DNA of 63,950 bases, the filler included, from an uncultured bacterium (GTDB lineage Bacteria > CAZSTA01): the NCBI GenBank assembly GCA_964609495.1. It is 10 parts of 10 records of this genome, joined end to end, with 100 filler letters (N's around TTAATTAATTAA, not from the genome) between each part and the next. Parts side by side here need not be neighbours in the genome. Positions count along the whole stretch, not along the records: positions 20,916 to 27,619 come from CAZSTA010000194.1; 9 more parts are not named here. One strand, given 5' to 3'. This document shows, piece by piece, positions 6,934 to 27,719 of the stretch (positions are counted from its first letter, which is position 1; each line of letters opens with the position of its first letter). The position numbers and the translations under genes were made by a program. The notes under the pieces are model-generated. The model worked only from the letters and a program-made list of their open reading frames with translations, searched no databases and had not been told where the DNA came from.

Positions 6934-7033
6934 NNNNNNNNNNNNNNNNNNNNNNNNNNNNNNNNNNNNNNNNNNNNTTAATTAATTAANNNNNNNNNNN
7001 NNNNNNNNNNNNNNNNNNNNNNNNNNNNNNNNN
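6934..7033. other. Artificial contig linker (first of nine; others at 13925, 20816, 27620, 34409, 41169, 47908, 54554, 61197, each 100 nt)
   Basis: N44-TTAATTAATTAA-N44 with stops in all six frames; contig lengths decrease monotonically. Confidence 0.98.
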
Positions 7034-13601: not shown

Positions 13602-14024
13602 GCAAGCGAGAGGATATATGAAAGGGAACTAATAACATACGGATATATATGATCTGGGCAGGCATTTGGTGAGGGGTTCTCCAGCAAATTCTGATAAAAT
13701 AGATTGGTGTTGGAAAAAGTGATAAGAAAGGGGAGGAAAAGATTTAAGGTTAGAGAGGGAGTTATAGAGCAATTGAAACCTAGCTTGGACTTATTTAAGT
13801 TGTGCTTCGAAACATCTCCCTATTTGTCTCTCCCCTATCCTTTAATCCCAGTCAGACCCCCTTTGATCGTTGCTCTAATTCTTTATTTCTGGCCTCTAAG
13901 TATCCTAGCTTATAGATGGCTATANNNNNNNNNNNNNNNNNNNNNNNNNNNNNNNNNNNNNNNNNNNNTTAATTAATTAANNNNNNNNNNNNNNNNNNNN
14001 NNNNNNNNNNNNNNNNNNNNNNNN

Positions 14025-20815: not shown

Positions 20816-21162
20816 NNNNNNNNNNNNNNNNNNNNNNNNNNNNNNNNNNNNNNNNNNNNTTAATTAATTAANNNNNNNNNNNNNNNNNNNNNNNNNNNNN
20901 NNNNNNNNNNNNNNNGTTATCTCGATATACGAGATAACTAATATCATATATCGAGGTTCATTTGTTTAATGAGGATAGAGATATCCTGCCTTTAATACCA
21001 ACTTAGGATATTCTTAATTCCTCGAAGTTGCCATATTTTCCCTGTAAGATATTGAATCTATGCTAACTTGAGGAGGTGGTGATCGAATTTTTGAAGATTG
21101 TTGGAGGATTTAGAAATCTTGGGAGTGTAGTATCTTTAAGAAATTTAAAAGGAGGAGTTTCA

Positions 21163-23546: not shown

Positions 23547-24417
23547 AACTATGCCCCCCAAAAAATTAATCCAGAGGTCCGGGATATTTTACAATGTGAT
23601 CAAGAGAGTCGAGAGAGTCTTTCTCTACATCCTGTTGATCTGCGGAGTAATCATTTTTCTTAGTCCCTATATCTTTATGGTTATAAGCTCCTTTAAGGCT
23701 AACAATGCTGAGATATTCACCTATCCTCCTCGCTTGCCGGTTATATGGCATATAGAGACCTATACTTCTTTATTCAAAGAAAACATCTTCGGTCGATACT
23801 TCTTTAATACTATATTAGTTTCGACTGTAACTACTTTTTTAGCGCTTCTGGTGAACTCTCTAGCAGCATATGCCTTTGCCAGATTGGAGTTTAAAGGCAA
23901 GCATTTTCTCTTTATATTTCTCCTCACAACCTTGATGATCCCTTTTGAAACGGCTATGGTCCCTCTATACTTGCTGATAAATAAATTTGGCTGGTTGAAT
24001 GACTATAAGTCTCTTATAATTCCAGGGATCGCAAATATGTTCTCCATCTTCTTTCTAAGACAATATTTCCAAACTATTCCCAAGGATCTGGAGGATGCAG
24101 CTAGAATAGATGGCTGTTCCTATGTTGGCACCTACTTTCGAATAATAATTCCTCTCACCGTTCCCGCCCTGACCGCCATAGCGATCTTAACTTATCTTTG
24201 GAATTGGAATTCCTTCCTTTGGCCACTGATCGTTTTGAGTAAACGGGAGATGTATACTCTCCAATTGGGAATCGCTAATCTTCAAGGCCTATACACTACC
24301 CAATATGCAGCTATCTTGGCTGCTTCTGTAGTTGCTTCTGTCCCTATGATCGCGATCTTCCTGGCACTTCAAAGATATTTCATTCAAGGTATCGTGATGA
24401 GTGGCCTGAAAGGATAG
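23539..24417 (+). CDS. Carbohydrate ABC transporter permease
   Basis: LEDAARIDGCS, WNSFLWPLI, QRYFIQGI. Confidence 0.9.
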   Translation: MIRTMPPKKLIQRSGIFYNVIKRVERVFLYILLICGVIIFLSPYIFMVISSFKANNAEIFTYPPRLPVIWHIETYTSLFKENIFGRYFFNTILVSTVTTFLALLVNSLAAYAFARLEFKGKHFLFIFLLTTLMIPFETAMVPLYLLINKFGWLNDYKSLIIPGIANMFSIFFLRQYFQTIPKDLEDAARIDGCSYVGTYFRIIIPLTVPALTAIAILTYLWNWNSFLWPLIVLSKREMYTLQLGIANLQGLYTTQYAAILAASVVASVPMIAIFLALQRYFIQGIVMSGLKG

Positions 24418-24753
24418 GGGAGGAGATAATCGAGATCGGCGCATCGATAGAAACAAGGGAGATTTTATGTAAAAATAAGCACCTTCCAGATCTTTACATT
24501 TAGCTCCAAATACAGCTTGAAAAATCAGCTATACCGTGAATTATGTTTAAGAACGAGGAAGGGGGATAATACAAAAGTCTCCAAAATTTTTGCTCTATCC
24601 TTAAAAAATCCCTCGGCTTGGTCTTTATTCCTTGGTATAATTATCTTGATATATGAGATTAAATATTATCTTGACATATCTGCCCTTATTATACGGCACC
24701 AGCCTTCTCCTCACAATAACGCAAATTATAAGAAAAATTTTGTAAATCTATAC

Positions 24754-24782
24754 TTGACAAATGACCAAAATGTGGGTATACT
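24754..24782 (+). promoter_or_regulatory. Sigma70 promoter upstream of the PSD-like region
   Basis: TTGACA-N17-TATACT. Confidence 0.65.
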
Positions 24783-24956
24783 TTAAACAGAAACTAAATA
24801 TCTGCTTGCAGGGAGGTGATAAGCAACCAATAGTGAAACCAGCCGTTATATTTGTGAGTGGTATTTTTCGCGTGCCACGAAGCATAGAAATGAACGAACG
24901 GTTCTCTTATAACCAATAGTTCTTTGGCACTATCAACACCAAATAGGGAGACTACC

Positions 24957-25008
24957 CGATTTTTAAGCAGGTTTTAAAAAGGTGCGTTTAAAACTTAGTA
25001 GGCAACAT
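24957..25008 (+). repeat. Putative tyrosine-recombinase site (attI/dif-like), copy 1
   Basis: 39/40 identical to 26660-26699; ends GGTGCGTTTAA-AACTTA-GTAGGCAACAT. Confidence 0.55.
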
Positions 25009-25034
25009 AGCCATTAGTTAGGAGGTAATAACAG

Positions 25035-26189
25035 ATGCCAAAAATCATTTTTAGGATGAGATTTATTCTTGCGGTTATAATATTGGTAGGAATAATTTCT
25101 TGTGTAAGCGCAGTCTCTAATTTATCTTCTGCAGAGGAAATAGAAACTGACTACCAAGCAGTTATTTCAAACCTGAAAGAACTAATTGAGAATACCCCTA
25201 CTCTCAAAGCACAAATTGATGAATCTATAAAGGTGCAAGATGAAAAATCTTACTGGCATAAAAAGTCAAGCGATGATTTTATCAAGTTTTTTGCCGAATG
25301 GCTCGTTTACAATCCCCAGCCAGAGGCCCCGGGAAAATATGTCAGGATCTTTGATGAATTTGCCAATTCGGGAGGAGCAGGAGAAATTCTTCTTAATAAC
25401 AATGTTTTCAGCTCGTGGTTTATTGCGTTTATCAATGCTAGAGCACAGTACTTGGATACCGAACGTTCAGCTGCAATCCTTGCGCAATGGATGAAGTACC
25501 CTGATTTAAGGATAAATGAGTACATTGTGCCTAAAGGCGGTTTCAAGACTTTTAACGAATTCTTCTTGCGGAAAGTCAAACCAGAGGCAAGACCACTTGA
25601 TGGCAAAGATGATTCTTCTGTAATCGTATCTCCAGCAGATGGCTCAATCTGTCAGATCTACGCCGAGGACTTAGATACGAATTACAAAATAAAAAGAGAT
25701 GTAATAAACATCCGACAAGCGCTTAACAACAGCCCTTATGCCGATAAGTTCATCGGTGGAGCAGTTGTAGATATTTTATTATGGTTTACTGACTATCATC
25801 ACTTTCACGCACCTATATCTGGTAAAATCGTCTCTATTGGCGAGTATGCCGGCTCATATAATTACAATTTCCGGAATGTAAACTGGTATCGGCAACTTGC
25901 AAAACATAAACGTTCCTGTTATATCATTGAAACCGAGAATTTTGGTTTGGTGGCTATGATTCCAATTGGCTTTTGGACTGTTGGATCAATCGTAACTGAG
26001 TGTAAACTTGGGGATTATATTAAAAAGGGAGAGGAAATCGGCTATTTTAAATATGGTGGTTCTTCCATCCTATTGGTTTTTGAACCTAATGCTGTAAAAT
26101 TTACAATTCCTATCCCTGTTCAAGACAATGGTGATAAAGGCATTCCGGTTAAAGTAAGGCAAAAGATTGGCATAGCAACGCGCCGTTGA
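25035..26189 (+). CDS. Phosphatidylserine decarboxylase-like pyruvoyl proenzyme with signal peptide
   Basis: TFNEFFLRKVKPEARP, VSPADG, DYHHFHAP, GYFKYGGSS autocleavage motif; N-terminal signal. Confidence 0.88.
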   Translation: MPKIIFRMRFILAVIILVGIISCVSAVSNLSSAEEIETDYQAVISNLKELIENTPTLKAQIDESIKVQDEKSYWHKKSSDDFIKFFAEWLVYNPQPEAPGKYVRIFDEFANSGGAGEILLNNNVFSSWFIAFINARAQYLDTERSAAILAQWMKYPDLRINEYIVPKGGFKTFNEFFLRKVKPEARPLDGKDDSSVIVSPADGSICQIYAEDLDTNYKIKRDVINIRQALNNSPYADKFIGGAVVDILLWFTDYHHFHAPISGKIVSIGEYAGSYNYNFRNVNWYRQLAKHKRSCYIIETENFGLVAMIPIGFWTVGSIVTECKLGDYIKKGEEIGYFKYGGSSILLVFEPNAVKFTIPIPVQDNGDKGIPVKVRQKIGIATRR

Positions 26190-26331
26190 TCTAGTCTACT
26201 CTGCAAGAGCTAGACATCTTCTATTGCTCTTTAGATCCGAATAAAGAGAACTACGACATAAGACTTATGGGCAATCCAGAGGAGGACATTAAAAACATCT
26301 TAAGGGAGAGATAATGGGAGGGCACGGCAAC

Positions 26332-26403
26332 GTCGCCTAACTCAGCATAAAAGGTTCGTGCCTTATGGCACTCACCCAAATTCTGCCTTTGGCGAAACTT
26401 TCC
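26332..26403 (+). repeat. Truncated integron attC-like site
   Basis: R'' GCCTAAC (RYYYAAC) followed by internal hairpins GTGCC-ttat-GGCAC and GCC-ttt-GGC; right arm missing. Confidence 0.55.
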
Positions 26404-26508
26404 AAACCTACATCCTAGTCCAGAATCCCAACTCCTCTTCTCAGATGGAGGCGATAAACAGCTATTATATTCGTGGATGGTATTTTTTTATTATAAGGAG
26501 GTGATAAC

Positions 26509-26659
26509 ATATCCACAGAAGAAATAAAAGCCACTATCCGTCGGGTCCTTGACGAAGCATGGAACAAAGGCAACGGGGACGTATTGGAGAAATTTGCGCC
26601 AAAGAAAGCATTGTAAGTGGTAGTAGAGCCTTCCCCGACTATCAAGTCACGATTGAGGT
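26509..26659 (+). pseudogene. SnoaL-like ester cyclase remnant
   Basis: AAGGAGG RBS, ATA in place of ATG, STEEIKATIRRVLDEAWNKGN, then RAFPDYQVTIE in another frame; cut at the 26660 repeat. Confidence 0.7.
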
Positions 26660-26711
26660 CGATTTTTAAGCAAGTTTTAAAAAGGTGCGTTTAAAACTTG
26701 TTAGGTGAAAT
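26660..26711 (+). repeat. Putative tyrosine-recombinase site (attI/dif-like), copy 2
   Basis: GGTGCGTTTAA-AACTTG-TTAGGTGAAAT; contains GTTAGGT (GTTRRRY). Confidence 0.6.
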
Positions 26712-26744
26712 TCGCAGTGAAAATAATTTGAAAGGAAATGAGAC

Positions 26745-27619
26745 ATGAGACAAATGAAAAGAACGATTTCTAAGATGAAACTTTATTTAGCAATAATAGT
26801 ATTGGCAGCATCGATCCTTACCTTAAGCACAGGCTTTATAGGGGACGATAGTCATAAGCCGATAACTCGAGAGCTCATAGATTTAGTGGAGAGAAATCCG
26901 GAAATCCGGGACATGTTGGAAGCATCCATCGCCGAAGCTAAAAAAATAAATCCCGACCCGAAAACGAATCCTGTTCAGAGCTTGTCAGACTATTATGATT
27001 TCATAGACAGTGCATCAGAGCTCATCCCCCACGAAGTACTTGAGAATCCGTCCAATCTCATACGTGACCAAATACTGCAAAGTATCTGTTACTTTTATTT
27101 TCTGGTTGACCAACCCCTGCCTGAATTAAAAAACAAGGGTCTGTACAAGAATGCGATTCAGTACTACAAACCTTTTTCCTCATGGTCGCGCAATTTTGCC
27201 AAGACTTGGGGAGCGTTCCTTGATACCGAAAAGTCATGGAACCAAAAAACTTATCAGGAGTTTTATAACGACCCGAACTTCGGTTTACAGAAAGGGTGGT
27301 ATGAGTCCTCATCTAACTGGAACACGTTTAACCGGTTTTTCTCCAGATACTTAAAATCGCCTAATGCGCGGCCTATCGCTTCGCCGAGCGACCCGACAGT
27401 CGTTGTTTCACCGGCTGATTCCGTCCCTCAGGGAATGTGGGCAATTGATAAAAATTCAAATATCCAGGTAGAAAACGGATTGGAAGTCAAACTTGCGCGT
27501 TATTACAGTGTCAAGGATCTGCTTGCTGAGGACAGTCAGTACAAGGATGCCTTTGCCAATGGCGTACTCACCCACACTTTCCTGAATGTATTTGACTACC
27601 ACCGCTATCATTTCGCTGT
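26745..27619 (+). CDS. Second phosphatidylserine decarboxylase-like protein with signal peptide (3' truncated)
   Basis: WNTFNRFFSRYLK..ARPI, VVSPADS, DYHRYH; runs into the linker. Confidence 0.85.
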
Positions 27620-27719
27620 NNNNNNNNNNNNNNNNNNNNNNNNNNNNNNNNNNNNNNNNNNNNTTAATTAATTAANNNNNNNNNNNNNNNNNNNNNNNNN
27701 NNNNNNNNNNNNNNNNNNN

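Follow-up and report, generated by a model that had tools for sequence, protein, structure and literature searches.

A repeated dif-like site ahead of two divergent PSD-like genes in an uncultured bacterium as a probable attI-type site of an integron-like gene-capture system

Introduction

In the XerS/difSL and XerH/difH systems, the recombination site lies by the recombinase gene, and the pdif modules of Acinetobacter plasmids are short gene modules with Xer-type sites in inverted orientation, which carry no recombinase of their own and use the XerC/D of the host. Integron integrases, as set out in passages of PMC9668308 and PMC7790495, are defined by an extra domain that is held to enable recombination of folded, single-stranded attC sites, and PMC4792948 and PMC7790495 propose that they evolved from Xer-like enzymes through acquisition of the I2 helix. 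Passages of PMC9668308 also describe archaeal integrons, clusters of attC sites lacking integron integrases (CALINs), attI sites beside intI, and attC sites that are 95-100% identical across domains, and part of PMC12901181 reports that attI1-ORF-attI1 and delta-attI cassettes (ORF, open reading frame) are excised and inserted by IntI1. Here we describe a locus within a 63,950-nucleotide stretch of DNA (the window) from the uncultured bacterium CAZSTA01 (GenBank assembly GCA_964609495.1), in which a near-identical element precedes each of two PSD-like genes, and compare it with these systems.

We consider it probable that the two repeats are attI-type, double-stranded recombination sites of an integron-like gene-capture system and that the locus is a fragment of such a platform. 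We favor this reading because, in other genomes, the site heads cassettes that end in attC-like elements and lies upstream of, and divergent from, a gene for an IntI-like recombinase. It would also account for the presence of nearly the same upstream element at two PSD-like genes that are very different from each other.

Results

A near-identical element precedes two divergent PSD-like genes

Positions 24957-25002 and 26660-26705 of the window were identical at 43 of 46 positions, with mismatches at positions 14, 41, and 42; the first 40 positions agreed at 39, as an earlier note on this DNA had claimed for a direct repeat ahead of both PSD-like genes. Within the window, a 24-mer core of the repeat was present in two places, and 100 shuffles yielded no occurrence. 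Each copy lies on the plus strand and consists of a 24-nt left flank followed by a 28-bp dif-like core. Copy 1 spans 24957..25008 (flank, 24957-24980; core, 24981-25008), and copy 2 spans 26660..26711 (flank, 26660-26683; core GGTGCGTTTAA|AACTTG|TTAGGTGAAAT, 26684-26711). The core has the shape of dif, with two 11-bp inverted arms around a 6-bp center, and the best 28-mer for copy 2 in positions 1588500-1592500 of E. coli K-12 matched at 9 of 11 positions in each arm (18 of 22 in total; next best, 14/22), which reproduces the 11-6-11 reading proposed earlier. This 28-mer is presumably dif, although the record carries no such annotation. At 26699-26705, copy 2 has the sequence GTTAGGT, and the copies diverge at the G|TT of this GTTRRRY motif, as had been noted, with copy 1 having AG in place of the GT of copy 2 before a common TAGG. 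In a strain variant of the window's own species (contig L014), copy 2 was identical over the 46-mer to the sites on contigs L001 and L018, and the window copy 2 differed from all three at base 46 (GGT vs GGC).

PSD1 (25035..26189, plus strand; 384 aa with a hydrophobic N-terminus) and PSD2 (26745..27619, plus strand; a partial gene, truncated at the end of the contig after 291 codons) scored 150.2 and 70.1 bits, respectively, against PF02666, both above its gathering cut-off of 22 bits, and PSD1 is a putative captured cassette gene. The two proteins are only 25% identical; thus, the repeat is not the leftover of a recent gene duplication, and conservation of the site at 43/46 beside such divergent genes suggests that it may be maintained by selection or repeated conversion. 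The closest relative of PSD1, which is 74% identical, is encoded in a WOR-1 metagenome-assembled genome (MAG). Among the other long homologues of PSD1 type (L036-L082, L028-L035), those from Chlorobium and Omnitrophota were about 63% identical and those from Bacteroidota and Pseudoalteromonas 35-40% identical. As these homologues are scattered among phyla with very different labels, the gene itself may have spread horizontally.

The element stops 27 nt short of one start codon and 34 nt short of the other, a position that could also be read as that of a shared cis-regulatory leader, operator, or promoter of both PSD paralogues, with a perfect 11-8-11 palindrome inside the element binding a transcription factor. 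A weak promoter-like match (26698-26727, 9/12) overlaps copy 2, and the left flank overlaps the -35 region of a recombinase promoter in relatives, where binding could also regulate. However, none of 55 PSD1-homologue loci (455 kb) contained the element when up to 7 substitutions were allowed, and it is therefore not a PSD leader; none of these loci contained the attC-like element described below either. In other phyla, unrelated genes follow the element, at least nine of them different. Hence, the site is not confined to psd genes, a point on which the earlier note had staked its interpretation. Moreover, the element had no Rfam match, and the outer arm of the palindrome changes alone, without compensation, which argues for a protein-binding DNA site and not an RNA hairpin. 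We judge the regulatory explanation very unlikely.

Variants of the site at loci L019, L020, L023, and L027 keep TTAAAACTTGTTA unchanged and keep the inverted arms TGCGnnTAA / TTAnnCGCA around AACTTG. Read from the alignment, the 24-nt left flank corresponds to the part of the relatives' recombinase promoter that comprises its -35 box and spacer; the window copies retain this flank but have neither the -10 box nor the recombinase gene. GTTAGGY or GTTATGY was found in relatives' sites that adjoin divergent recombinase genes. At loci L005, L008, and L011, one or two extra GC-rich hairpins of locus-specific sequence stand between left flank and core. A riboswitch or leader RNA, as suggested by the hairpin and these variable hairpins, was rejected, as we found no Rfam match, no theme among downstream genes, and no compensatory change, any of which would mark a structured cis-regulatory RNA. 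Resemblances to an rRNA-leader boxA, a tracrRNA-like sequence, and a DnaA box were likenesses only and were dropped, and an apparent conserved promoter, AATTTAAGAATTTTTTGTTATAAT, proved to be the reverse strand of recombinase codons.

A cut-down attC-like element follows PSD1

The earlier note had described half of an attC-like site after PSD1, a description that our analysis confirmed and extended. The element lies at 26333..26407 on the plus strand and consists of an R''-type GCCTAAC (26336-26342) and ~70 nt of a family consensus; the 3' half of the stem and the GTT box are gone. A covariance model of the family, R1, aligned its positions 19-73 (of 102) to 26350-26401, with a score of 45.3 bits and an E-value of 6e-10, and the window element corresponds to the 5' three-quarters of an attC-like element. 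The complete unit is ~100 nt long and runs from ...TAAC through an 11-bp stem, a 5-bp hairpin, CCCAAAT, a second hairpin, and the other half of the stem to AAC-GTT.... The best copies end in complementary 8-mers (CGCCTAAC / GTTAGGCG in L100), and the bases after the GTT are often AGGCGAAAT, which is the right arm of the dif-like site.

In 16 attC-like sequences, 93% of cells paired and 11 pairs changed on both sides, a result reached by 0 of 500 shuffles; several of the outer-stem changes stem from one sequence. R1 had no matches in the 455 kb of control loci and was found in 23 of 151 genomes of one phylum. Same-strand arrays of two to three copies occurred in nine loci, two MAGs of 0.5-0.6 Mb had 10 and 6 copies, and the largest array, in a genome of 0.9 Mb, comprised 12 matches, all on the same strand and within 25 kb (G028:C1:260349-285828), with no recombinase homologue within 1.5 kb of its upstream end (L134). 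An integron or CALIN calls for two or more attC sites with under 4 kb between them, each a folded, imperfect palindrome with R''/R' boxes at the 3' end of a cassette; the window contig, with a single incomplete element, does not qualify, whereas 12 relatives do (L099, L100, L101, L105, L110, L111, L114, L115, L116, G003, G007, and G028). A 20-mer from the element was found in 21 genome contigs from very different labelled phyla, including an archaeal MAG, although 3 of the 21 look unrelated, and the summed depth of public contigs over the bin at 26260-26397 was 55-419, compared to 14 or less elsewhere. Neither this 20-mer nor the site was present in a viral collection.

A reading of the attC-like element as a small ORF (..ITQHKRFVPYGTHPN..) was discarded, as diverged members keep the structure and lose the frame. 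A semi-conserved stretch, GCCTTCGG...CACCCTCG or TTCACTTCGTTCA, lies ~20 nt 5' of the TAAC box and outside model R1 at the elements of L007, L011, L017, L020, L023, and L092. Several other observations concern the surroundings of individual copies. In the MAG contigs L108 (1-2406 and 3195-6075) and L114 (87-382), an attC-like element lies within 1-2 kb of a CRISPR array, as judged from sub-threshold Rfam CRISPR-DR matches. On the minus strand of L114 (1141-1685), a cassette between two attC-like elements contains two overlapping ORFs of 101 and 83 aa, which may be a pair of toxin-antitoxin type. A Deltaproteobacteria MAG contig that also carries an attC-like element has an Rfam SECIS_3 match at L097:4268-4326 (49.6 bits; gathering score, 63).

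Related sites head cassettes in other genomes

An exact search for the 24-mer among the genomes of 185,579 species found one contig, L001, from a Saccharibacteria MAG. A 20-mer scan of metagenome contigs returned 16 stretches, of which L006 (a terminator hairpin) and L015 look like chance matches, L004 is doubtful, L014 is the window's own species, and the others represent about eight distinct loci. The site, at up to 46/46 identity, was found on a single contig of a Saccharibacteria MAG and on about 12 contigs from metagenomes, and the labels of site-bearing contigs include Saccharibacteria, Parcubacteria, TA06, and others. Wherever downstream genes were present, they read away from the element and started 25-250 nt after it. 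Among these genes, which bear no relation to one another, are infC-rpmI-rplT and those for a 446-aa protein of unknown type, an HD protein, a histidine phosphatase, and a methyltransferase.

We examined 13 site-bearing loci outside the window for an R1 match downstream of the site. In eight of them (L003, L007, L011, L017, L019, L020, L023, and L092), an R1 match followed on the same strand, after one or two genes and at a distance of 387-1386 nt in seven loci and at 5.4 kb in L003. No match followed the site in the DNA available for L001, L005, L008, L018, and L027; the contigs of L001 and L018 end within about 100 nt of the site. Genes in these cassettes are likewise of unrelated kinds and include a patatin, two methyltransferases, an HD protein, a histidine phosphatase, and DUF6884. 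In ten cassettes, the four informative bases at the start complemented the 5' box of the cassette's own attC-like element at 28 of 40 positions, compared to a permuted mean of 22.7 (P 0.026). This agreement is modest, but it is the signature that would be expected if cassettes circularize through these sites.

Some copies of the site stand alone, with no recombinase gene, including those at L005, L007, L017, and L092 and both copies in the window. Solo sites at two unrelated loci, L017:11-177 and around 1300-1520 of L092, lie 50-110 nt 3' of a tRNA-Ile(GAT) gene, with no recombinase between. The recurrence of solo copies is in line with the proposal of dispersed solo sites as docking points that would capture genes in trans.

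A tyrosine recombinase gene adjoins the site in relatives

In L018, a gene for a tyrosine recombinase lies on the reverse strand, to the left of the element, and its promoter region borders directly on the element. Homologues or remnants occupy the same place in L001, L003, L011, L019, L020, L023, and L027, such that in eight loci, counting L018, the recombinase gene adjoins the site and is divergent from it, with the site directly upstream. The MAGs that bear these genes are labelled Saccharibacteria, TA06, Parcubacteria, and 'Gammaproteobacteria'. Both an attC-type family and an integrase-type gene, which the earlier note had proposed to seek beyond the locus, are present in relatives; together with the finding that the site is not confined to psd genes, this means that the refuting condition set by the note turned out in favor of its interpretation, which we regard as supported. 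In L108, a shortened recombinase gene is followed by a restriction-modification pair that ends in an attC-like element.

The recombinase family scored best against TIGR02249, the integron integrase family, but only over model positions 4-179 and 229-315, and the 241 bits of the intact relative L021 fall under the cut-off of 265. The best solved relative was Vibrio IntI4 (2a3v, E 2e-48), with XerA structures next. In the alignment to 2a3v, 14 query residues stand opposite 56 chain residues (184-239), and the family that adjoins the site lacks the IntI-specific domain around patch III by which integron integrases are recognized. By sequence comparison, the recombinase is IntI-like without the IntI-specific insertion. 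No match over the integron-integrase cut-off was found in 5 MAGs searched.

The same family scored 231.5 bits against NF040815, the XerA-type model, over its cut-off of 220, as would be expected if the site were the chromosome-dimer-resolution dif of an Xer-type recombinase and PSD1 were an element like the integrative mobile elements exploiting Xer (IMEX), which leave a site on each side. The 11-6-11 core, with its 9/11 and 9/11 arm matches to the best E. coli 28-mer, also fits this explanation, as do direct repeats bounding a 1.7-kb module. By contrast, dif occurs once per replicon, at the replication terminus, and here two copies lie 1.7 kb apart in the window and two are present in MAG G003; one 0.5-Mb MAG has two sites that each head cassettes ending in attC-like elements; the adjoining recombinase has decayed in all eight loci, which would be odd for a housekeeping function; and the consistent order of site, gene, and attC-like element is that of an integron and not of dif. 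We therefore regard a dif or IMEX origin as unlikely.

Layout of the window locus

The locus lies on a 6.7-kb contig at 20916-27619. The window joins contigs of about 6.8 kb end to end through N44-TTAATTAATTAA-N44 linkers (at 6934-7033, 13925-14024, 20816-20915, 27620-27719, and further) and two N100 runs, and genes on either side of a linker are not neighbors. Along the contig, three ABC-transporter genes are followed by a 540-nt spacer and then by the two PSD-family genes. At the locus itself, a promoter-like site is followed by site 1, the PSD1 cassette, the broken attC-like element, the gene remnant, site 2, and finally PSD2; this is an 'attI-ORF-attI' architecture. The independent metagenome contig L014 shows the same arrangement, which is therefore not an assembly artefact.

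The promoter-like site TTGACA-17-TATACT (24754..24782, plus strand) reads towards copy 1 and PSD1 and matches the consensus at 11 of 12 positions. The earlier note called it a strong promoter; the match stands, but the region contained 7 promoter-like matches, compared to a shuffle mean of 7.0, and the site is best described as a consensus match only. A second, weaker repeat, on the plus strand at 24837..24868 (copy a, upstream of site copy 1) and 26456..26487 (copy b), is identical at 26 of 32 positions; its local alignment score was 34, compared to a mean of 17 and a maximum of 29 in shuffles (reached by 0 of 500). The shared upstream DNA therefore exceeds the site, though in a different order. 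The gene remnant abutting site copy 2 (26509..26659, plus strand) consists of a 35-codon frame without a start codon, followed by a frame change. It had been labelled SnoaL-like, a label that lacks support, as the frame at 26509-26613 had no SnoaL-family Pfam match at E up to 10.

In a taxonomic comparison, the UppS sequence was only 43-48% identical to those of five candidate MAGs. Parts of the stretch were present in 24 public sequencing runs, mostly of salt-marsh, marsh, and marine-sediment metagenomes. Two joints listed in these data (23880-26495 and 23894-24094) were seen in one run each, with sides of 20-21 letters, and are too short to trust.

Discussion

The comparisons described above suggest how the locus could have formed. 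In the mechanism that we propose, the two repeats would be attI-type sites, each with an 11-6-11 dif-like core and a conserved 24-nt left flank. In relatives, the genes inserted to the right of the site read away from it, and each ends in an attC-like site that folds over ~100 nt. A recombinase encoded elsewhere and acting in trans would bind the two inverted arms, strand exchange would occur at the edge of the 6-bp center (G|TT), and PSD1 would have arrived by such site-specific recombination. The second site might have come from recombination between two sites, from a duplication of the site after which PSD1 entered one of the copies, or from ordinary duplication. The comparisons show the anatomy of the site, its family, and its associations; from these we infer catalysis, the crossover point, activity of the site in this organism, capture in trans, and the direction of evolution.

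Several results weigh against this reading. First, R1 found only one copy of the attC-like element in the window, and that copy is incomplete. Second, copy 1 of the site leaves the family consensus exactly at the presumed crossover, as it reads AACTTA | GTAGGCAACAT, with AACTTA | GTAGG where the family has AACTTG | TTAGG. Third, the recombinase genes beside the exact site are broken in eight of eight cases, by frameshifts at different places or large deletions; the intact relatives L021 (317 aa), L022 (269 aa), and L120 (272 aa) are more distant, L021 and L022 have no recognizable site, and L120 has GTTAGGC just upstream, on the opposite strand and 85 nt from the contig end. Fourth, the recombinase lacks the insertion that is held to be needed for attC recombination, and its link to the attC-like sites is by association only. 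Fifth, a tblastn search of the whole window found no homologue of the site-associated recombinase (best E 0.83), which bears out the earlier statement that the contig carries no integrase. Sixth, a scan of 401 genomes of one phylum for the core pattern with one mismatch or fewer matched 12 genomes, with no excess over a reversed-pattern control; from the printed flanks, L143 looks genuine, and L140, L144, and L146 look like chance matches in coding DNA. Finally, in the contigs of 4 public runs, neither a joint linking the two sites nor the junction of a circle was present, but these contigs are short and break at repeats, and the absence of a joint thus says nothing either way.

Some of these same results would be expected of a functionless relic, in which a segment of a decayed platform was duplicated by ordinary recombination and is now inert. 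The incomplete attC-like element, the alteration of copy 1 at the crossover, and the broken recombinases of all relatives fit such a history, as does the 32-nt repeat (26/32) upstream of both copies, which indicates that more than the site was copied. A relic would not readily account for 43/46 identity within flanks that otherwise cannot be aligned, beside genes that are 25% identical, nor for copies in other phyla with identity as high as 46/46 next to recombinase remnants that are down to 61% identity. We consider this explanation improbable and retain the attI-type reading.

The system could, more tentatively, be a distinct integron-like class that combines an IntI-related recombinase that has lost, or never gained, the I2-containing insertion, a dif-like, double-stranded attI site, and attC sites that form a three-way junction. 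It would be spread over candidate-phyla bacteria and, by shared cassettes and sites, into unrelated phyla such as that of the window's organism, with solo attI-type sites as dispersed docking points. We see this as a possibility short of an even chance. A recombinase without the IntI-specific insertion and a dif-like core fit the idea, raised in the earlier note, of an intermediate between integrons and Xer-type systems. If the class is real, it could be a living example of the Xer-to-integron transition, as outlined in parts of Escudero et al. (PMC4792948) and PMC7790495. The recombinase clade that is nearest to integron integrases but has no insertion stands at the head of arrays of cassettes, together with hairpin-type sites and an insertion site that is dif-like; should these enzymes carry out the recombination, natural proteins and sites would allow a direct test of whether integrons originated from Xer-type resolvases. 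In that case, the exchange of gene cassettes would also reach candidate-phyla bacteria with tiny genomes, as the attC-like element is present in 23 of the 151 genomes sampled. Our literature search found no integrons or attC arrays in candidate-phyla bacteria and no insertion-less IntI-like enzyme with cassettes, although supplementary survey tables may list them; in the relevant passages of PMC11386340, IntegronFinder is applied only to resistance contigs.

Compared to known systems, the locus resembles pdif modules in that a short gene module lies between Xer-type sites and has no recombinase of its own, but the sites here are direct repeats and have an attC-like partner. Single-recombinase Xer/dif systems (archaeal XerA) and IMEX have in common with the present system a 28-bp, 11-6-11 dif-like core and a recombinase that passes the XerA-type cut-off, and here too the site adjoins the recombinase gene in relatives. 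Unlike Xer/dif systems, the present one has more than a single site in a small genome, and it includes attC-like hairpins as partners, arrays of cassettes, and recombinase genes that have decayed.

The likeness to integrons, including sedentary arrays with decayed intI and CALINs, extends to more features. A divergent recombinase gene adjoins the insertion site, with GTTRRRY at the right edge of the site; single-gene cassettes read away from it and end in an imperfect palindrome with ...TAAC / GTT... boxes; same-strand arrays have a spacing of 0.5-2 kb; and both the best family and the best solved relative of the recombinase are integron integrases. In contrast to integrons, the recombinase here lacks the IntI-specific insertion, the core of the attI-type site has a regular, dif-like 11-6-11 form, the attC-like element is a three-way junction with an unusually conserved interior, and the window has no integrase and only one broken attC. 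The attI-ORF-attI and delta-attI cassettes of integrons of class 1 and of class 2 belong to clinical mobile integrons with active IntI1, whereas the present locus is on a chromosome-like contig with no integrase in view. As in those cassettes, however, attI-type sites on both sides replace a working attC, and the minimal delta-attI1 consensus given in part of PMC12901181, AAACAAAGTTRRRY, resembles the AAAACTTGTTAGGY of the window.

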